Source: Bryobacterales bacterium (lineage in GTDB: Bacteria > Acidobacteriota > Terriglobia > Bryobacterales > UBA6623). Taken from it: a DNA stretch of 64,000 nucleotides. The notes beneath the pieces were generated by a model. It saw nothing but the letters and a program-made list of their open reading frames with translations. It searched no databases and was not told the DNA's origin. Shown here in pieces: positions 15,274 through 57,804 of this stretch. Location: assembly GCA_965247305.1 (NCBI GenBank), contig OZ252030.1, forward strand, positions 189,262-253,261, written 5' to 3'. Each line of letters opens with the position of its first letter. Within the stretch, counting starts at the first letter, position 1. Both the position numbers and the translations under genes were made by a program.

Positions 15274-15347
15274 AGGCTCAAACGCGACTGATTGCGTAGC
15301 AGACCGGCACGTTTTACTCGCCGTGAGATGGTGAGAAATGCGGGCGA

Positions 15348-15645
15348 GCTAGAGCAATTTTGCTGATGCCATAGACCGTTCTTGAATAAAAAGCGGTGAA
15401 GCTGGCAATTTCTGGAGACTAGATTCCGCTGTCCAAAATCGGAGGCGCGACTGTAAAGGAGTGCGGTGGCGAAGGGTGAACTGGGAAAGAGGAGTCGGGC
15501 CCTGTTGAGGAATGATCAGCAGGTCCCAACTCAGCGTATTCCAGAAAGCTGCTCCGCAACCGCACTCCTTTACAGACGCGCCTCCGATTTTCACGGGCTC
15601 GGTGCTGCGGCAAGCAGTCTAGGCCATTCCTGAAAATGCTCTAGC
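15348..15645. repeat. ~300-bp imperfect palindromic intergenic element (family 1, intact copy)
   Basis: Termini GCTAGAGCAATTTT... and ...GAAAATGCTCTAGC are inverted. There is an inner 33-bp inverted repeat (15435-15467 vs 15559-15591, 1 mismatch). About 90 bp (15370-15460) closely match 35945-36030. Confidence 0.85.
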
Positions 15646-35685: not shown

Positions 35686-35920
35686 TAAGGCATGTTCTGG
35701 AGCATTTTCTTCAATAGTTTGGCCCTGATCGCGGGCATCATGGCGATCGGATGGGGAGTTGGCAAGTGGAAGAGTTAGTAGTCACACGCCTATGGATGGC
35801 AGGTGTCGTCGCCATGATGGCGCTATTTGGGCTGGTCTCACTGGTGGGTTATCTTCGGCAGAAGTAGCGAACCCCGCGGCGCCAGCACGTACTTTCACTA
35901 TTGGCAGGTCAGAAATGCCG

Positions 35921-36064
35921 GCTAGAGCATTTTCAGTAACGGCGTAGACCGTTCTTGAATGAAAAGCGGTGAAGCCGGTAATTCCTTGAGACTAGATTCC
36001 GCTGTCCGAAATCGGAGGCGCGACCGTAAGGGGCTGTGAAAAAACCTCCCCTAACTCGAGAATC
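35921..36064. repeat. palindromic intergenic element family 1, copy 2, long (left) arm
   Basis: Begins GCTAGAGCATTTTCAG. About 90 bp are highly similar to 15370-15460. It ends ...GAAAAAACCTCCCCTAACTCGAGAATC, which is mirrored at 39838-39870. Confidence 0.85.
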
Positions 36065-36085
36065 GGGCGTAGCAAGCTACGCCCC
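36065..36085. repeat. apex hairpin GGGCGTAGC-AA-GCTACGCCCC (flanking duplication, copy 1 of 3)
   Basis: Perfect 9-bp stem immediately abutting the IS left end. Confidence 0.85.
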
Positions 36086-36149
36086 CTGGAGTTTGGCTGT
36101 TCAAAGAGGGTTGAAGTTTGGGGTAGGGTGCGGAAATAGGGGATTGGCG

Positions 36150-37670
36150 TTAGCCGGAAGCGTAGATTGCTGCAGGCGGAGCGCCTCTTGGGAGTTTCTG
36201 CAGCTTCGTGTTGGATTGCGAAGTGTTCCGCAAGCCGCAGAAATGTTGCCGCTGCACGCCGTCCGCCCAAAGCTCGGCCCGCAGGTGGCTGATCAGCCGT
36301 TGCGTGGTGAGCCGTTGCGGCTGCGAGCGGCGTCGCCAGTGCGGTCGCGGCAAGGCGTCGTCCACGCCCTGTTGGCGGCTCCAACTCGCGCCCGCCAACA
36401 GCAGTAGCGCATACACCGCCGTCATAAATTGAGGGACCCGCTCGACCGCGTCCGGCTGCCGCACCTGCGCCTGTCCGACTCCCAACAGCGTCTTCTGCTC
36501 ACGGAAGTTGACCTCGATCTCCCAGCGCCAAACGTACTGCCGCACGATCTGCTCCAGCCCCAAACTCGGATCGCTGACAATCAAATACGCCGGCTTGCGA
36601 TACAGCACCTTCGAGCCCGCCCGCGGCCGATAACCCAACGGTGCGATCACCACCAAACGCAAGTCCCGCTTGCCTCCCGCCGGCCGCCAACGCAGCGGCG
36701 CGAGCGTCTTCACTTTGAACTGGTGCAGGCTGCCGGCGGCAAAAACCTCGACCGTTTGCCACGGCACGTTGTCGTCCTGGCGGAGTTGCTCGGGCGTCGG
36801 CGCGCGTTCGCCGTAACAACGCCTGCGGCCTTTGCCGGGCTGCTCGAGGGGCAGATGATACAGCTTGGCGTCGGAACGAATGCGGCCGATCAACGTCACC
36901 TCGGCGGGCAACGATCCGAACACCGTGCGGTTGGTGTAAGCGCCATCAACGACGAGGTGCAAGGCTCTGTCAGCGCCTCCGGGATCGGCGTTCATGGCCT
37001 CGCGCAAGCGCGCGATGTGCCTGGCGGCGAGGGCCGTCAAGCTGCACTTGCGAGCCTCGCGCCGGTACTGTTTCCAAACCTCGTCCGTGGCCTTCTTCGA
37101 CGGTCGGCGCGGAGTCGGCGCGTGTTCCAAGCCGATCGGAATGAGTCGCGCCGGCTGCTGCCGCTCGCTGGGAGGCAGTGCTGCCGAGAATTGCAAGAAG
37201 CGCTGCGCGAGAATCAAGTTGGCCTGAAACTTGGGTCCAAGCGGATCGCGCCGCCAACTCACGCCGGGCGTTTTGAGACTCGACTTGGCGAGCAGTGTAT
37301 CGTCGATGGCGACGACCAAGGGAGCCTCGGGCGGCAAGCGAGCGAGCACCTCGCGGCGCGAGGCATCGAGCAGGCGTTGCGGCTCGACGCGTTGTTGCGA
37401 GAACAGGCGGTAGCCGGCGCTCCAGTCCTGAAAGCTCTCGCCGGAGGCATGTAGCAGGCCGGTGATGGTGGAGCGGCCGAGGCAGACGGCGGCACCGAGA
37501 GCGAGGCGGGTGAGGTGGTCGTTCACGCTTTGTCGGGCGTGGGGGTTGAGGCCTTTGGCGAAGAGTCGGGAGAAGGTGTCGACGACTCGATCGGGAGTTT
37601 TTTTTTCAACTCGACGGGCGGAGGTTGCAAACGATTGAGCACGAGTTGGGAGCGGTCGAGCAGGATCCAT
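36150..37670 (-). CDS. DDE transposase frame of IS copy A (YREK-type, IS4/IS701/IS1634-like)
   Basis: D in VVAIDDT, D in LVVDGAY, and Y-x2-R-x3-E-x6-K in YVWRWEIEVNFREQK. In this copy the frame stays open upstream across the A9 run, so the 5' 48 codons overlap orfA. Confidence 0.85.
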   Translation of the reverse strand: MDPARPLPTRAQSFATSARRVEKKTPDRVVDTFSRLFAKGLNPHARQSVNDHLTRLALGAAVCLGRSTITGLLHASGESFQDWSAGYRLFSQQRVEPQRLLDASRREVLARLPPEAPLVVAIDDTLLAKSSLKTPGVSWRRDPLGPKFQANLILAQRFLQFSAALPPSERQQPARLIPIGLEHAPTPRRPSKKATDEVWKQYRREARKCSLTALAARHIARLREAMNADPGGADRALHLVVDGAYTNRTVFGSLPAEVTLIGRIRSDAKLYHLPLEQPGKGRRRCYGERAPTPEQLRQDDNVPWQTVEVFAAGSLHQFKVKTLAPLRWRPAGGKRDLRLVVIAPLGYRPRAGSKVLYRKPAYLIVSDPSLGLEQIVRQYVWRWEIEVNFREQKTLLGVGQAQVRQPDAVERVPQFMTAVYALLLLAGASWSRQQGVDDALPRPHWRRRSQPQRLTTQRLISHLRAELWADGVQRQHFCGLRNTSQSNTKLQKLPRGAPPAAIYASG

Positions 37671-37786
37671 TCGAGCTGTTCGCCGGGCTGGAAGTCGAGC
37701 ATCTGAGCGCTGGCGGAGGGGAAGTTGACGTAGAACTGTTGGGAAGCCTTGCGCTTGATCAACTGCAGTTTGGTGGGGAAGGACAT
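37523..37786 (-). CDS. IS orfA, AbrB/MazE/SpoVT-like small protein (copy A, 87 aa)
   Basis: AAGGAG 7 nt upstream of the ATG. MSFPTKLQLIKRKASQQFYVNFPSASAQMLDFQPGEQLEWILLDRSQLVLNRL fits a swapped-hairpin beta-alpha-beta pattern. The call is by pattern only. Confidence 0.6.
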   Translation of the reverse strand: MSFPTKLQLIKRKASQQFYVNFPSASAQMLDFQPGEQLEWILLDRSQLVLNRLQPPPVELKKKLPIESSTPSPDSSPKASTPTPDKA

Positions 37787-37941
37787 GAGGTCTCCTTGGA
37801 AATGAATCTAGTTACACAACAAGCTAAACAACTAGATACAAGAATACCTCAAAATGTTTTGAGACACAAGCATTCTCAGATCCCTCACAACTCAAGAACG
37901 TGCTTACCGCGCGTCCCATCTAGTGAAAGGCCAAACTCCAG

Positions 37942-37962
37942 GGGGCGTAGCTTGCTACGCCC
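37942..37962. repeat. hairpin GGGGCGTAGC-TT-GCTACGCCC between IS copies A and B (copy 2 of 3)
   Basis: Same stem as 36065-36085 with the 2-nt loop complemented. Confidence 0.85.
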
Positions 37963-39817
37963 CTGGAGTTTGGCTGTTCAAAGAGGGTTGAAGTTTGGGG
38001 TAGGGTGCGGAAATAGGGGATTGGCGTTAGCCGGAAGCGTAGATTGCTGCAGGCGGAGCGCCTCTTGGGAGTTTCTGCAGCTTCGTGTTGGATTGCGAAG
38101 TGTTCCGCAAGCCGCAGAAATGTTGCCGCTGCACGCCGTCCGCCCAAAGCTCGGCCCGCAGGTGGCTGATCAGCCGTTGCGTGGTGAGCCGTTGCGGCTG
38201 CGAGCGGCGTCGCCAGTGCGGTCGCGGCAAGGCGTCGTCCACGCCCTGTTGGCGGCTCCAACTCGCGCCCGCCAACAGCAGTAGCGCATACACCGCCGTC
38301 ATAAATTGAGGGACCCGCTCGACCGCGTCCGGCTGCCGCACCTGCGCCTGTCCGACTCCCAACAGCGTCTTCTGCTCACGGAAGTTGACCTCGATCTCCC
38401 AGCGCCAAACGTACTGCCGCACGATCTGCTCCAGCCCCAAACTCGGATCGCTGACAATCAAATACGCCGGCTTGCGATACAGCACCTTCGAGCCCGCCCG
38501 CGGCCGATAACCCAACGGTGCGATCACCACCAAACGCAAGTCCCGCTTGCCTCCCGCCGGCCGCCAACGCAGCGGCGCGAGCGTCTTCACTTTGAACTGG
38601 TGCAGGCTGCCGGCGGCAAAAACCTCGACCGTTTGCCACGGCACGTTGTCGTCCTGGCGGAGTTGCTCGGGCGTCGGCGCGCGTTCGCCGTAACAACGCC
38701 TGCGGCCTTTGCCGGGCTGCTCGAGGGGCAGATGATACAGCTTGGCGTCGGAACGAATGCGGCCGATCAACGTCACCTCGGCGGGCAACGATCCGAACAC
38801 CGTGCGGTTGGTGTAAGCGCCATCAACGACGAGGTGCAAGGCTCTGTCAGCGCCTCCGGGATCGGCGTTCATGGCCTCGCGCAAGCGCGCGATGTGCCTG
38901 GCGGCGAGGGCCGTCAAGCTGCACTTGCGAGCCTCGCGCCGGTACTGTTTCCAAACCTCGTCCGTGGCCTTCTTCGACGGTCGGCGCGGAGTCGGCGCGT
39001 GTTCCAAGCCGATCGGAATGAGTCGCGCCGGCTGCTGCCGCTCGCTGGGAGGCAGCGCTGCCGAGAATTGCAAGAAGCGCTGCGCGAGAATCAAGTTGGC
39101 CTGAAACTTGGGTCCAAGCGGATCGCGCCGCCAACTCACGCCGGGCGTTTTGAGACTCGACTTGGCGAGCAGTGTATCGTCGATGGCGACGACCAAGGGA
39201 GCCTCGGGCGGCAAGCGAGCGAGCACCTCGCGGCGCGAGGCATCGAGCAGGCGTTGCGGCTCGACGCGTTGTTGCGAGAACAGGCGGTAGCCGGCGCTCC
39301 AGTCCTGAAAGCTCTCGCCGGAGGCATGTAGCAGGCCGGTGATGGTGGAGCGGCCGAGGCAGACGGCGGCACCGAGAGCGAGGCGGGTGAGGTGGTCGTT
39401 CACGCTTTGTCGGGCGTGGGGGTTGAGGCCTTTGGCGAAGAGTCGGGAGAAGGTGTCGACGACTCGATCGGGAGTTTTTTTTCAACTCGACGGGCGGAGG
39501 TTGCAAACGATTGAGCACGAGTTGGGAGCGGTCGAGCAGGATCCATTCGAGCTGTTCGCCGGGCTGGAAGTCGAGCATCTGAGCGCTGGCGGAGGGGAAG
39601 TTGACGTAGAACTGTTGGGAAGCCTTGCGCTTGATCAACTGCAGTTTGGTGGGGAAGGACATGAGGTCTCCTTGGAAATGAATCTAGTTACACAACAAGC
39701 TAAACAACTAGATACAAGAATACCTCAAAATGTTTTGAGACACAAGCATTCTCAGATCCCAGACAACTCAAGAACGTGCTTACCGCGCGTCCCATCTAGT
39801 GAAAGGCCAAACTCCAG
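37963..39817 (-). mobile_element. IS4-superfamily insertion sequence, copy B (1855 bp), head-to-tail with copy A
   Basis: Same termini as copy A. It differs from A by A8 vs A9 (39475-39482), one synonymous base (39056) and a 2-nt change at 39771-39772 in the noncoding 5' region. Confidence 0.92.
38027..39403 (-). CDS. DDE transposase frame of IS copy B
   Basis: 458-aa ORF identical in protein sequence to the corresponding part of copy A. The orfA ATG lies at 39662. Confidence 0.85.
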   Translation of the reverse strand: MNDHLTRLALGAAVCLGRSTITGLLHASGESFQDWSAGYRLFSQQRVEPQRLLDASRREVLARLPPEAPLVVAIDDTLLAKSSLKTPGVSWRRDPLGPKFQANLILAQRFLQFSAALPPSERQQPARLIPIGLEHAPTPRRPSKKATDEVWKQYRREARKCSLTALAARHIARLREAMNADPGGADRALHLVVDGAYTNRTVFGSLPAEVTLIGRIRSDAKLYHLPLEQPGKGRRRCYGERAPTPEQLRQDDNVPWQTVEVFAAGSLHQFKVKTLAPLRWRPAGGKRDLRLVVIAPLGYRPRAGSKVLYRKPAYLIVSDPSLGLEQIVRQYVWRWEIEVNFREQKTLLGVGQAQVRQPDAVERVPQFMTAVYALLLLAGASWSRQQGVDDALPRPHWRRRSQPQRLTTQRLISHLRAELWADGVQRQHFCGLRNTSQSNTKLQKLPRGAPPAAIYASG

Positions 39818-39836
39818 GGGCGTAGCTTGCTACGCC
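39818..39836. repeat. hairpin GGGCGTAGC-TT-GCTACGCC right of IS copy B (copy 3 of 3)
   Basis: Directly abuts the IS right end. Confidence 0.85.
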
Positions 39837-39837
39837 T

Positions 39838-39903
39838 GATTCTCGAGTTAGGAGAGGTTTTTTCATACCCCCTAGGGTTGCGACTCTGATGCCGTTGCTC
39901 TAG
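39838..39903. repeat. palindromic intergenic element family 1, copy 2, short (right) arm
   Basis: GATTCTCGAGTTAGGAGAGGTTTTTTCA... is the reverse complement of 36033-36064 with 1 mismatch. It ends GCCGTTGCTCTAG, mirroring CTAGAGCA...AACGGC of the left arm. Confidence 0.8.
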
Positions 39904-43912: not shown

Positions 43913-44022
43913 TTGTGATCTCCGCTGGGGATTCGACGCCTTTCATGCTAGCGGACGGGGCGGGCTTTGATCTGAAGCGTGGACTGCCGTCCATGCCTCG
44001 CTGGAGTGCCGTCCATGCCTCG

Positions 44023-44256
44023 CTGGAGTTTGGCCTGCGCTGGCCTTTCCCGCTCGTTCGGCGGGGCAGGGGGAACTCCCGGCGCGTCGTCGACTTCGAA
44101 TCCCAGGGTTGCACCCCGGGCGAATACAAACGTCACCCCTCCGGGGTTCAGATTCTGTGGCTTCGCGCACAGTGCTACGCGCAATCCGAGGCGTCAGTGA
44201 TTCGATTATGGACTCATTCTTCAAGCCTTACAGCCTCCAATAAAGCCACACTCCAG
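44023..44256. mobile_element. 234-bp MITE carrying the terminal inverted repeats of the IS
   Basis: Starts CTGGAGTTTGGCC and ends GCCACACTCCAG. There is no coding capacity. It is flanked by duplicated hairpin GAAGCGTGGACTGYCGTCCAYGCCTCG (43974-44000 and 44258-44284). Confidence 0.7.
44059..44170. repeat. ~112-bp repeat (family 2), copy inside the MITE
   Basis: CGGCGGGGCAGGGGGAA...GGGTTGCACCC...CACCCCTCCGGGGTTCAG...GGCTTCGCGCAC aligns with 61576-61688 at roughly 85% identity by eye. Confidence 0.8.
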
Positions 44257-44423
44257 TGAAGCGTGGACTGTCGTCCACGCCTCGGATTCTGGGTGGCGAG
44301 TGGCCTCGTTGGCGCAGGGTTCGAGAACAGTGTCGACAGCGGAAGACTTCTCGGGGCGGTAACTACGGCAGCTCTGAACACGCCCTTTGATAGAATGGAC
44401 AAGCCTGGAAGGCCTGTATTCTC

Positions 44424-48452: not shown

Positions 48453-49409
48453 ATGCTCAGTCAGGCGCAGCTTTCTCAGTTCGACGAAGATGGGTTTTTG
48501 GTTGTTGAGGATCTGCTCGATCAAGAACTCGATGTTGCGCCTGTAGTCGCCGAGTATGAGGCGCTGCTCGACAACCTCTGCGCGGGCTGGGTTGCTGAGG
48601 GGCGTCTAGAGGATACATTTGCGGCGCTACCTTTTGAGCAGCGGCTCGTAAAGGTCTATCAGGCCGGGTTGCAGTACACGCAGCCGCTTGATATTGCTCT
48701 ACCGGGCGGCGAGATTAGAGCGGATACGCCGATTCATTTGGGGCAGGCGGTCTTTGACTTGATGCGCAGTCCGCGGCTGCTCGACGCGGTGGAGTCGTTC
48801 ATCGGACCAGAGATTTATTCGAACCCTATCCAACACGTGAGGATTAAGCCGCCGTTGAGTCTGGTCGACGCCACGGACCACGCGAATGCCATGTTGGCAA
48901 AGACGTTCTGGCACCAAGACCAGGGCGTGACGATGCCCGAGGCGGATGAAACGAACATGATCACGGCCTGGGTCGCGATTACAGACGCCACGGCTGAGAA
49001 TGGCTGCCTCCAAGTGATTCCGGGCAGCCATCGCGGGGAGATGGTGACGCACTGTCCGGGCAAGCAAACTAGGATTCCGGATCATCTCATTGACGAGGGG
49101 TTGGCACGGCCGGTTCCGGTGCGGGGCGGCGGTGTGATTTTCTTTCACCCCTATACGAAGCACGCGTCGCTGAACAATTTGAGCGATTCGTTCCGCTGGA
49201 GCTTTGATCTACGCTACAACCCAATTGGGGAGCCTACCGGACGGCCATTCTTCCCCGGATTTGTAGCGCGCAGCCAGGCGCACCCGCAGAGCGAGGTGCG
49301 CGACGTGAGGGACTGGGCGGCCTCTTGGTATGAGGCCCGGAGATTGCTCGCTATCGATGGCTCGGTGACGCTGCATCGCTGGGACGCTGACGCGCCGGTT
49401 TGTGCTTAG
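48453..49409 (+). CDS. phytanoyl-CoA dioxygenase (PhyH) family Fe(II)/2-oxoglutarate oxygenase
   Basis: Contains LSQFDEDGFLVVEDLL, the H-x-D motif in FWHQDQG, and the distal His in HPYTKHAS. Confidence 0.8.
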   Translation: MLSQAQLSQFDEDGFLVVEDLLDQELDVAPVVAEYEALLDNLCAGWVAEGRLEDTFAALPFEQRLVKVYQAGLQYTQPLDIALPGGEIRADTPIHLGQAVFDLMRSPRLLDAVESFIGPEIYSNPIQHVRIKPPLSLVDATDHANAMLAKTFWHQDQGVTMPEADETNMITAWVAITDATAENGCLQVIPGSHRGEMVTHCPGKQTRIPDHLIDEGLARPVPVRGGGVIFFHPYTKHASLNNLSDSFRWSFDLRYNPIGEPTGRPFFPGFVARSQAHPQSEVRDVRDWAASWYEARRLLAIDGSVTLHRWDADAPVCA

Positions 49410-49747
49410 CCCGCATTTCTCACCAGCCAACAGTGAATGCACGCGTTAGTTGCGTCACCCCTTCGTTGCGCTCGCTTGCCGTGCTCAACGGACTGTCGAG
49501 TACGCCTGCGCGCGCCAAGTGTCGCGTGCCTCGTATTGACGGACCTTCCGCGCACTTTCCGTCGCTGACTGGTGAGAATTGCGGGTTATAACGGCATTAG
49601 TTGATGTGCGATCATCTTTGCGTCTGCTTTTCCTGAAGAGCGGCGTGAGTAGCTGCTCCGGTTGGATCAGTCGCTTCGTGACAACCGCCTACCTTCTTGC
49701 GCGGCTCAGACTCTCGCCATCTGCACAACGTTGCTGGCGTCGTCTCG

Positions 49748-55824: not shown

Positions 55825-55858
55825 AAACGAGGCGTGGACGGAAGTCCACGCCTCGTTT
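55825..55858. repeat. terminator-like hairpin AAACGAGGCGTGGAC-GGAA-GTCCACGCCTCGTTT, left flank of IS copy C
   Basis: Perfect 15-bp stem with A-tract/T-tract flanks, abutting the IS end. It is duplicated at 57771-57804. Confidence 0.85.
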
Positions 55859-57770
55859 CTGGAGTTTGGCTGTTCAAAGAGGGTTGAAGTTTGGGGTAGG
55901 GTGCGGAAATAGGGGATTGGCGTTAGCCGGAAGCGTAGATTGCTGCAGGCGGAGCGCCTCTTGGGAGTTTCTGCAGCTTCGTGTTGGATTGCGAAGTGTT
56001 CCGCAAGCCGCAGAAATGTTGCCGCTGCACGCCGTCCGCCCAAAGCTCGGCCCGCAGGTGGCTGATCAGCCGTTGCGTGGTGAGCCGTTGCGGCTGCGAG
56101 CGGCGTCGCCAGTGCGGTCGCGGCAAGGCGTCGTCCACGCCCTGTTGGCGGCTCCAACTCGCGCCCGCCAACAGCAGTAGCGCATACACCGCCGTCATAA
56201 ATTGAGGGACCCGCTCGACCGCGTCCGGCTGCCGCACCTGCGCCTGTCCGACTCCCAACAGCGTCTTCTGCTCACGGAAGTTGACCTCGATCTCCCAGCG
56301 CCAAACGTACTGCCGCACGATCTGCTCCAGCCCCAAACTCGGATCGCTGACAATCAAATACGCCGGCTTGCGATACAGCACCTTCGAGCCCGCCCGCGGC
56401 CGATAACCCAACGGTGCGATCACCACCAAACGCAAGTCCCGCTTGCCTCCCGCCGGCCGCCAACGCAGCGGCGCGATCACCACCAAACGCAAGTCCCGCT
56501 TGCCTCCCGCCGGCCGCCAACGCAGCGGCGCGAGCGTCTTCACTTTGAACTGGTGCAGGCTGCCGGCGGCAAAAACCTCGACCGTTTGCCACGGCACGTT
56601 GTCGTCCTGGCGGAGTTGCTCGGGCGTCGGCGCGCGTTCGCCGTAACAACGCCTGCGGCCTTTGCCAGGCTGCTCGAGGGGCAGATGATATAGCTTGGCG
56701 TCGGAACGAATGCGGCCGATCAACGTCACCTCGGCGGGCAACGATCCGAACACCGTGCGGTTGGTGTAAGCGCCATCAACGACGAGGTGCAAGGCTCTGT
56801 CAGCGCCTCCGGGATCGGCGTTCATGGCCTCGCGCAAGCGCGCGATGTGCCTGGCGGCGAGGGCCGTCAAGCTGCACTTGCGAGCCTCGCGCCGGTACTG
56901 TTTCCAAACCTCGTCCGTGGCCTTCTTCGACGGTCGGCGCGGAGTCGGCGCGTGTTCCAAGCCGATCGGAATGAGTCGCGCCGGCTGCTGCCGCTCGCTG
57001 GGAGGCAGCGCTGCCGAGAACTGCAAGAAGCGCTGCGCGAGAATCAAGTTGGCCTGAAACTTGGGTCCAAGCGGATCGCGCCGCCAACTCACGCCGGGCG
57101 TTTTGAGACTCGACTTGGCGAGCAGTGTATCGTCGATGGCGACGACCAAGGGAGCCTCGGGCGGCAAGCGAGCGAGCACCTCGCGGCGCGAGGCATCGAG
57201 CAGGCGTTGCGGCTCGACGCGTTGTTGCGAGAACAGGCGGTAGCCGGCGCTCCAGTCCTGAAAGCTCTCGCCGGAGGCATGTAGCAGGCCGGTGATGGTG
57301 GAGCGGCCGAGGCAGACGGCGGCGCCGAGAGCGAGGCGGGTGAGGTGGTCGTTCACGCTTTGTCGGGCGTGGGGGTTGAGGCCTTTGGCGAAGAGTCGGG
57401 AGAAGGTGTCGACGACTCGATCGGGAGTTTTTTTTCAACTCGACGGGCGGAGGTTGCAAACGATTGAGCACGAGTTGGGAGCGGTCGAGCAGGATCCATT
57501 CGAGCTGTTCGCCGGGCTGGAAGTCGAGCATCTGAGCGCTGGCGGAGGGGAAGTTGACGTAGAACTGTTGGGAAGCCTTGCGCTTGATCAACTGCAGTTT
57601 GGTGGGGAAGGACATGAGGTCTCCTTGGAAATGAATCTAGTTACACAACAAGCTAAACAACTAGATACAAGAATACCTCAAAATGTTTTGAGACACAAGC
57701 ATTCTCAGATCCCTCACAACTCAAGAACGTGCTTACCGCGCGTCCCATCTAGTGAAAGGCCAAACTCCAG
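55859..57770 (-). mobile_element. IS4-superfamily insertion sequence, copy C (1912 bp = 1855 + 57-bp internal duplication)
   Basis: Same 12-bp termini as the other copies. A8 run at 57428-57435. In-frame tandem duplication at 56416-56472 / 56473-56529. Confidence 0.92.
55923..57356 (-). CDS. DDE transposase frame of IS copy C (19-aa internal duplication)
   Basis: 477-aa ORF identical to copy B apart from the duplicated RWRPAGGKRDLRLVVIAPL. The orfA ATG lies at 57615. Confidence 0.8.
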   Translation of the reverse strand: MNDHLTRLALGAAVCLGRSTITGLLHASGESFQDWSAGYRLFSQQRVEPQRLLDASRREVLARLPPEAPLVVAIDDTLLAKSSLKTPGVSWRRDPLGPKFQANLILAQRFLQFSAALPPSERQQPARLIPIGLEHAPTPRRPSKKATDEVWKQYRREARKCSLTALAARHIARLREAMNADPGGADRALHLVVDGAYTNRTVFGSLPAEVTLIGRIRSDAKLYHLPLEQPGKGRRRCYGERAPTPEQLRQDDNVPWQTVEVFAAGSLHQFKVKTLAPLRWRPAGGKRDLRLVVIAPLRWRPAGGKRDLRLVVIAPLGYRPRAGSKVLYRKPAYLIVSDPSLGLEQIVRQYVWRWEIEVNFREQKTLLGVGQAQVRQPDAVERVPQFMTAVYALLLLAGASWSRQQGVDDALPRPHWRRRSQPQRLTTQRLISHLRAELWADGVQRQHFCGLRNTSQSNTKLQKLPRGAPPAAIYASG

Positions 57771-57804
57771 AACGAGGCGAGGACGGAAGTCCACGCCTCG
57801 TTTT
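57771..57804. repeat. second copy of the terminator-like hairpin, right flank of IS copy C
   Basis: AACGAGGCGAGGAC-GGAA-GTCCACGCCTCGTTTT has the same loop orientation, with one stem mismatch. It lies 57 nt downstream of the sulfatase-like gene stop. Confidence 0.85.

Follow-up and report, generated by a model that had tools for sequence, protein, structure and literature searches.

In the full-text literature, hairpin targeting by insertion sequences (ISs) was found only for IS1272 and the IS1182 family and for the ISs specific to repeated extragenic palindromes (REPs), and duplication of a whole palindrome by IS701-like elements was not found there (curated IS databases were outside the scope of this search). 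Here we describe an IS from a 64,000-nucleotide stretch of a Bryobacterales bacterium contig (OZ252030.1, positions 189,262 to 253,261 of the forward strand; hereafter the window), in which positions 35921-39903 hold two copies, A and B, arranged head to tail inside a palindromic intergenic element and bordered by copies of one short hairpin. We consider it probable that this IS enters the feet of hairpins by virtue of their structure, duplicating the whole palindrome as insertion at the feet of a cruciform would do, and that the tandem was formed by a second insertion into a duplicated hairpin. A broader proposition, for which the arguments seem to us evenly balanced, is that a widespread IS701-like clade reads secondary structure and joins to the 5' feet of extruded palindromes, leaving a duplication equal to the target hairpin, and so realises a pathway that was hypothesised for IS1272.

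The closest described system is IS1272/TnSha1 (IS1182 family), whose transposition is structure-dependent and replaces a stem-loop (PMC4923244, PMC5678879). Like the element described here, IS1272 belongs to the DDE type and has two reading frames in ~1.9 kb of DNA; hairpins and terminators are its targets whatever their primary sequence, and one hairpin may be struck repeatedly. The short tandem duplications of the IS terminus reported for it have counterparts at 44001-44022 of the window and at a locus outside it (L055). The two differ in the fate of the target, as IS1272 deletes or replaces the stem-loop and makes no duplication, whereas here the stem-loop is duplicated whole. Attack at the 5' feet of a cruciform, by which the whole stem-loop would be duplicated, was drawn by Wan et al. 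as a hypothetical branch (PMC5678879). No IS1182 model was present among the NCBIfam matches to our transposase at E <= 0.01, the best of which were IS701 and IS4 models.

Judged by its transposase sequence, the element is an IS701-like insertion sequence (IS4 superfamily). In common with canonical IS701 elements it has terminal inverted repeats and a DDE transposase scoring above the IS701_3 and DDE_5 cutoffs. Canonical elements carry a single transposase open reading frame (ORF), whereas here there are two, orfA and orfB, with a run of nine A residues (A9) between them. Canonical members are 1400-1550 bp long, duplicate exactly 4 bp of the target and, for the most part, have a YREK motif without its Y (PMC2266710). 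Our element departs from this description both in its duplications (19-35 bp) and in its length (1856 bp); the YREK motif is complete here, as it is in the clade, whose elements measure 1750-1900 bp and are built of orfA, the A9 run and orfB.

Repeated extragenic palindromes are the specific targets of IS1397 and ISKpn1 (IS3 family), and REP-specific ISs insert at a fixed position inside the palindrome, depend on the sequence of a single REP family, and leave either no duplication or one of 3-4 bp. Other REP-targeting elements are ISPpu9 (PMC12288879), ISPpu10 and ISPa11 (IS110/IS1111 families). Several targets of the IS described here are likewise REP-like repeated hairpins, but any perfect hairpin serves and is duplicated whole. 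A further parallel is found in the Cas1-Cas2 integrases of CRISPR systems and in casposons, where staggered joins at the borders of a partly palindromic repeat are followed by gap repair that duplicates the 28-37-bp repeat. The enzyme is unrelated, the repeat is of fixed length and the reaction depends on a leader; this is an analogy only, with no homology implied.

The tandem locus consists of the following parts, given without a strand where none applies:

35921-36064: left arm of a palindromic mosaic repeat; its outer ~112 nt are homologous to 15348-15459, and complementarity to the right arm covers the inner 36 nt
36065-36085: hairpin H1, GGGCGTAGCAAGCTACGCCCC; stem, loop and stem are GGGCGTAGC AA GCTACGCCCC
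36086-37941, minus strand: IS copy A, CTGGAG...CTCCAG over 1856 bp; its terminal inverted repeats match at 12/12 positions
37942-37962: hairpin H2, between copies A and B, GGGGCGTAGCTTGCTACGCCC; GGGGCGTAGC TT GCTACGCCC
37963-39817, minus strand: IS copy B, 1855 bp, reading C at 39056 and A8 at 39475-39482, and alone in having AG at 39761-39762
39818-39836: hairpin H3, GGGCGTAGCTTGCTACGCC; GGGCGTAGC TT GCTACGCC
39837-39903: right arm of the palindromic element; homology to a related species with the neighbouring glycosyltransferase gene stops at ~39894

A repeat search found direct repeats with periods of 1877 and 1876 nt spanning the two ISs, and in BLAST copies A and B showed 99.8% identity across 1855 nt. 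Together with H1, H2 and H3, which are copies of one 19-21-bp hairpin that flank and separate the ISs, these results bear out the alternation of three hairpins and two ISs proposed in the initial annotation, as well as the common orientation of the ISs, which lie head to tail with the transposase on the minus strand in each. H2 is the exact reverse complement of H1, and H3 repeats H2 directly, its loop being oriented as in H2; the AA loop in H1 versus TT in H2 and H3 had been correctly read. Within the window this hairpin pattern is confined to the tandem locus, with 0 chance occurrences expected.

The ISs differ in A9 versus A8 (T-runs on the plus strand, 37598-37606 versus 39475-39482), in T at 37179 versus C at 39056, and in TC at 37885-37886 versus AG at 39761-39762. 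The nucleotides listed previously were all correct, but the last pair had been placed some 9-10 nt away (37894-37895/39771-39772). Because the outermost C (5') and G (3') are constant in every copy at every locus and the bases beyond them vary, the element was delimited as CTGGAG...CTCCAG, 1856 bp. Its terminal inverted repeats (CTGGAGTTTGGC / GCCAAACTCCAG) match at 12/12 positions in all 8 copies, and copy A equals the family consensus apart from the T at 37179, which is also found in a copy at another locus (L008).

The palindromic nature of the site was evident from its arms, 36029-36085 and 39817-39873, which over 57 nt are 93% complementary; absence of this complementarity had been named as grounds for abandoning the annotation. 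When the ISs are left out, the remaining 230 nt fold as a single long hairpin (-71 kcal/mol, z = -11.4; 0/200 shuffles as stable), in agreement with the ~230-bp palindrome that had been described and with the nesting of both ISs in its apex.

Whole-hairpin duplication was seen at eight sites of this IS species and, in addition, at a 234-bp derivative. Besides the tandem, the window contains a third copy, C, and a derivative resembling a MITE (a miniature transposable element with inverted repeats), and six further copies (99.8-99.9% identical) were obtained from long-read contigs of one metagenome. In 5/6 of the latter the palindrome was duplicated at both flanks, its sequence being different each time. 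Copies with such duplications include:

55859-57770, minus strand: IS copy C, carrying A8 and, internally, a 57-bp tandem duplication that keeps the reading frame
44023-44256: MITE-like derivative, 234 bp, with IS termini (CTGGAGTTTGGC; CTGGAGTGTGGC on the other strand)
Copy B of the window (winB): duplication of 19-20 bp
Locus L005: duplication of 22 bp
Locus L007: duplication of 19 bp
Locus L008: duplication of 23 bp
Locus L009: duplication of 22 bp
Locus L117: duplication of 19 bp

Copy C is flanked by a 33-bp direct repeat of a different, terminator-like hairpin (55826-55858 / 57771-57803, one mismatch) with a 15-bp stem, AAACGAGGCGTGGAC GGAA GTCCACGCCTCGTTT, and the MITE-like derivative by a 28-bp hairpin duplication (43973-44000 / 44257-44284, 2 mismatches). 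The sixth metagenomic copy (L006) lies between two different hairpins, one of which is the GGCGTAGC AA GCTACGCC hairpin of the window in another genomic context. The copies are 99.8-100% identical, yet the flanking hairpins differ from locus to locus, with the same hairpin on both sides of one copy; as near-identical ISs bear different hairpins, these are target duplications and not parts of the IS.

Some of these loci have features of their own. The tandem duplication in copy C (~56416-56472, exact position ambiguous within the repeated unit) adds 19 amino acids to the transposase, with an ORF of 477 amino acids at 55923-57356 on the minus strand. Beside the MITE-like derivative, 44001-44022 is a 22-bp tandem duplication of the first 6 nt of the element and part of the hairpin. 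At L008 (also L116; ENA ERZ26167216 ctg459458), an IS3-family element supplies the target hairpin, located between its orfA (HTH_Tnp_1) and its orfB (rve); the hairpin is possibly the frameshift-stimulating stem-loop of that element. The IS at L117 (ENA ERZ26167216 ctg466955_23.87x_c), 99.8% identical, is carried by a 27-kb circular contig (coverage 24x) on which a ParA-like protein is encoded; this is probably a plasmid, by which the IS might spread. In a plasmid collection, no match was found at E <= 1e-20. The REP-like hairpin GCGTGGAC-NNNN-GTCCACGC (window 55826-55858) is an IS target again in other genomes, in the flanks of L009, L002 and L020. Its loop occurs in both orientations (GGAA and TTCC) relative to the conserved flanks, and for this reason loop flipping seems common in this repeat family.

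More distant members of the clade were flanked in the same manner, as in these IS species:

ISx2 (P0010), 58% amino acid identity: duplications of 19 bp at L011, 19-20 bp at L018 and 19 bp at L017
ISx3 (P0023), 56% amino acid identity: hairpins at both ends
ISx5 (P0078), 53% amino acid identity: duplication of 23-24 bp at L022
ISx4 (P0042), 52% amino acid identity: hairpins at both ends

Among the loci of these four species, L020, L023 and L024 had hairpins at both IS ends. A scan of metagenome contigs gave 80 relatives (46-57% identity), in 41 of which both IS ends were located. With the requirement of a perfect stem of >= 7 bp whose foot is <= 3 nt from the IS end, a hairpin was present in 35/39 left flanks and 36/38 right flanks of these 41 relatives, while 0.46% of window positions outside the IS loci satisfy the same requirement. 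A perfect hairpin thus adjoins >90% of the ~80 IS ends, and the matching duplications measure 20-35 bp. Across the clade, wherever the flanks of a copy form a matching pair, the duplications are 19-35 bp long and span the perfect part of the palindrome, +/- 1 nt. The whole stem-loop was present at both sides in at least 19 insertions, the two flanking copies being direct repeats, with equal loop orientation in 16/19 informative pairs. No sequence consensus was found among more than 40 targets. Target choice is defined by structure, and the length of the duplication (19-35 bp) tracks the target palindrome. As far as can be judged from these flanks, insertion at hairpin feet is obligatory for this IS and for the whole clade, and the hairpin copies are the target-site duplications of the IS. 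The clade is large: of the candidates scored, 4775 proteins reached E <= 1e-20, and they came from soils, sediments and several phyla.

In several members of the clade, exchange between IS copies has left its traces. Reciprocal exchange of flanks was noted at L010, L012, L013, L018, L019, L023 and L024 and could be traced in L010, L012, L013 and L018. One hairpin is on both sides of the IS at L018, and L010 and L013 each hold one half of that site, which indicates IS-mediated rearrangement or intramolecular replicative transposition. At L020 an IS200/IS605-like element (~470-1090; Y1_Tnp, 147 amino acids), bounded by CCGCCTGAAAGGCGG hairpins, lies inside orfA of a related IS. Locus L061 (JGI Ga0316628_100028067) holds three clade members in the order IS0 -> hairpins -> IS1 -> hairpin <- IS2, with only one or two hairpins between them.

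To account for these duplications, we propose that a short perfect palindrome receives staggered joins at its two feet, one at the left border and one at the right; the whole hairpin would be duplicated because the joins sit at the palindrome borders and are followed by gap repair. The substrate would be an extruded cruciform, or else some equivalent intermediate that bears hairpins. Within a cruciform, the 5' feet of the top- and bottom-strand hairpins would be adjacent whatever the stem length, the 3' ends of the IS would join at these feet, and filling of the two single-stranded hairpin gaps would copy the palindrome. At the tandem locus, the duplication ends where the first G.T / C.A mismatch breaks the longer stem, and the target would be the perfect apex hairpin, with a stem of 8-9 bp, of a longer imperfect palindrome. 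The predicted pre-insertion sites, each with one hairpin, are CTCGAGAATCGGGCGTAGCNNGCTACGCCTGATTCTCGAG for the tandem locus and GGATCAAACGAGGCGTGGACGGAAGTCCACGCCTCGTTTTCTAGAC for copy C.

It is possible, although we think it less likely, that the structure targeted is instead a hairpin in transiently single-stranded DNA, as on the lagging-strand template or in a transcription bubble, or that symmetric borders are recognised in B-form DNA. Short stems of 7-9 bp are poorly extruded as cruciforms in vivo, and hairpin-dependent elements such as IS200/IS605 and integron attC act on single-stranded DNA; a DDE transposase, however, must join both strands. Regarding the borders, duplications often begin with G/A-G and end with C-C/T, which means that weak border preferences exist, but the targets lack a consensus and the duplication in the window stops at the first stem mismatch. 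B-form DNA is itself an unlikely target because a fixed spacing of active sites cannot give staggers that vary by 16 bp, and a stagger of 19-35 bp that tracks palindrome length is incompatible with such spacing.

For the tandem, the simplest route is re-insertion into a duplicated hairpin. A first insertion would have turned one hairpin (H) into H-IS-H, and a second, independent insertion into either hairpin would have produced H-IS-H-IS-H. This was one of two routes considered in the initial annotation, where it was taken to imply target preference, and it is favoured by the targeting of hairpin feet, by the divergence of A from B and by pile-ups elsewhere. Counted as events, A and B are separated by 4, A and the unlinked copy at L008 by 1, and A and the copies at L005 or L009 by 2; T37179 is common to A and L008, and B has its private AG and an A8 run. 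On these sequence differences, A and B do not appear to be each other's closest relatives. Independent insertions at one hairpin do occur, because such pile-ups are shown by L061, whose members have 39-50% identity to the query, with one inverted, and by L055, which has the arrangement IS-hairpin-IS.

The other route starts from a single H-IS-H, which might have been expanded by unequal sister-chromatid exchange or slippage between the ~20-bp hairpins, or by RecA-mediated reintegration of an excised circle of IS plus hairpin. Such an origin would suit the clean 1877/1876-nt period of IS plus hairpin and the presence of hairpin repeats, substrates for exchange, around every copy. It would also suit a closed unitig (L028, Logan ERR3858129, 1902 nt) made up of the IS and a 31-nt hairpin (1872 + 30 nt overlap), which may be a circle or a tandem, but which could equally be a de Bruijn graph collapse, the 31-nt hairpin being equal to k. 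We regard expansion from one insertion as rather improbable, as A and B are no closer to one another than to unlinked copies and as the pile-up at L061 is heterologous, with different IS species and one of them inverted; since this cannot arise by duplication, re-targeting does occur. Contigs like L028 were seen in other samples, four in number.

An assembly artefact, by expansion of a repeat or by concatenation of one IS locus from two strain haplotypes, is very unlikely. The source is apparently a long-read metagenome assembly (an 8.55-Mb contig, with sister contigs named ctg..x_l), and differences in homopolymer length, A8 versus A9 and the junction runs of G and C, are typical of errors in such assemblies; nevertheless, substitutions and not homopolymers alone separate A and B, the three hairpins are unlike in loop and in length, a typical long read would exceed the 3.9-kb structure, and IS-hairpin-IS junctions are found again in the independent assemblies L055 and L061. 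That the hairpins are sub-terminal parts of the IS itself, an impression given by the palindromic flank, which makes hairpin plus inverted repeat read as one extended inverted repeat of 37-39 nt, is ruled out by the wholly different hairpins of copies 99.8-100% identical, with the same being true in every related species. Insertion between pre-existing doublets of identical hairpins was also rejected, as there were none among the 33 free hairpins in the window.

Several points weigh against the preferred reading of structure-guided insertion at hairpin feet and a second insertion at the tandem. As an empty-site allele was recovered for no insertion, the ancestral state with a single hairpin is one that we infer and have not seen. 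Exact look-ups of the flanking transporter and glycosyltransferase proteins gave no match; at the loci of glycosyltransferase orthologues (L029-L031, 91% identical) homology is lost at ~39894 and the element is absent, and at the lysS orthologue loci that correspond to copy C (L032 and L033) the REP-like hairpin is altogether absent. The runs of G and C at the junctions (GGG..CCCC in H1, GGGG..CCC in H2 and GGG..CC in H3) misfit the simplest two-step model; the four internal junctions fit only with extra assumptions, either 1-nt carry-over from the flank (an extra C brought along by copy B, an extra C and an extra G by copy A) or homopolymer miscalls. H1 and H2, with their AA and TT loops, are inverted and not direct copies, for which an extra event is needed. 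Furthermore, two hits on one of ~5000 hairpins (an estimate) by 10-20 copies would be only a few percent likely if hairpins were used uniformly. The cruciform step is also one that we infer. Finally, many relatives have different hairpins on their two sides, even in long-read contigs, which points to IS-IS recombination, intramolecular replicative events or chimeric short-read assembly as the explanation.

The flip of the H1 loop is probably secondary and could have resulted from gene conversion between the long inverted arms or from a template switch, during repair, between complementary single-stranded gaps. Other loop flips were seen at L071, a clear case that is also at the apex of a longer palindrome, and at L097, a third case. 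Simple inversion between the arms was discarded as the cause of a single flip, for it would flip both loops or neither. In addition, single stem positions distinguish the paired copies of a duplication, with one copy perfect and the other mismatched, at a rate above that expected from ISs that are >= 99.8% identical. This was noted for copy C (T at 55835, A at 57780), for L009 and L017, and for the MITE-like derivative (43973-44000 versus 44257-44284), among others. Gap repair across the hairpin that is error-prone, or that involves template switching, may be the source of these single mismatches.

The clade-wide rule of whole-hairpin duplication is of more interest than the tandem itself. One checkable rule accounts for the tandem IS, the triplicated hairpin and the palindrome apex, and thousands of genomes are open to its verification. 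A duplication whose length is set by the target would be direct, sequence-level evidence of structure-specific target capture by a DDE transposase, and would make the IS a tractable experimental system for the recognition of cruciforms or hairpins and possibly a probe for extruded palindromes in vivo. Each insertion turns one target into two, a hairpin remains beside each flanking gene, and the IS is bracketed by long direct repeats. If this is true, tandem pile-ups would be expected at terminators and REP-like repeats, because each insertion doubles its own target and keeps hairpins by the flanking genes; such hairpins are plausibly a low-cost niche for insertion. The long direct repeats could also permit precise excision and local amplification. 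Because flanks are exchanged frequently between copies, a role of this clade of ISs in driving rearrangements in Acidobacteriota genomes is suggested. There is a practical consequence for annotation tools, which presume short, fixed duplications and would here fuse the palindrome into the inverted repeats and mis-set the boundaries. The repeat search used here itself returned 'inverted repeats' of 37-39 nt, composed of hairpin plus IS terminus.

The coding part of the element comprises, in copy A:

36150-37670, minus strand: orfB frame, DDE transposase (NCBIfam NF049999, Pfam DDE_5)
37523-37786, minus strand: orfA, 87 amino acids, 57-68% identity across the clade
37598-37606, minus strand: A9 slippery run (T9 on the plus strand), joining orfA to orfB by a -1 shift

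The product of orfB matched NCBIfam NF049999, transpos_IS701_3 ('IS701 family transposase'), with 185.5 bits (curated cutoff 170) and Pfam DDE_5 with 60.5 bits (cutoff 27). Residues D75/76, D194, E338 and K345 are invariant in an alignment of 12 sequences, and no residue is missing from the Y-(2)-R-(3)-E-(6)-K motif. For orfA, a profile search of PDB sequences gave no match, and a single-sequence AlphaFold2 model was all-beta with low confidence (pLDDT, the predicted local distance difference test score, was 63). Sub-threshold similarity to the MazE/AbrB-like Pfam family (PF04014) was obtained in 2/4 orthologues (E = 0.006 and 0.03), with none for the protein of the window. The two frames overlap at TTG AAA AAA AAA C, with orfB in the -1 frame, open and homologous upstream as far as the A9 run. 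Five species of the clade have kept this run, as have relatives with identity as low as 41% (L002 and L003); fewer copies have A8, namely copies B and C and those at L006, L018 and L020. Such an overlap would be characteristic of programmed -1 frameshifting or of transcriptional slippage, from which a putative OrfAB product of ~545 amino acids would result.

A scan of genome contigs yielded 4 loci only, in one Bryobacterales metagenome-assembled genome (MAG) and one Verrucomicrobiota MAG. The IS copies in the Bryobacterales MAG are 94-95% identical in DNA, and the lysS gene neighbouring the IS in the window has its best named matches in Bryobacterales; both observations make a host in this order of the Acidobacteriota probable.

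The palindromic element that holds the tandem was compared with another repeat of the window, which had been taken as its intact reference:

15348-15645: related mosaic palindromic repeat, having in common with the tandem locus no more than the left module and the CTAGAGCA termini

Recurrence of this element at the tandem had been annotated as a long left arm and a short right arm. Its left part does recur (~112-130 nt, 83-86%), as does a 9-nt terminus, but the central parts are unrelated, and with the right arm it shares the 9-nt terminus only. The homology of this family also extends upstream beyond the supposed terminus. Full-length homology between copies, as would be expected of a single MITE or palindromic family bounded by common terminal inverted repeats, was not found. 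In the flanks of the ISs at L005 and L006 the same modules occur in other combinations, and the intergenic repeats are therefore best described, from these alignments, as a mosaic family resembling bacterial interspersed mosaic elements (BIMEs) and not as a single element with a long and a short arm. No Rfam match at the gathering threshold was obtained in the whole window, the repeat modules included. At several loci the CTAGAGCA 'terminus' is preceded by a conserved module of ~65 nt (...CGCAACGAAG..CGCGTGC.TTC....GGTGAGAAATGCGGGCTA), found in the window at 15285-15347, 35860-35920 and 49403-49470 (minus strand) and, at L005, upstream of the IS. At L006, the hairpin is fused to the module of 15456-15610.

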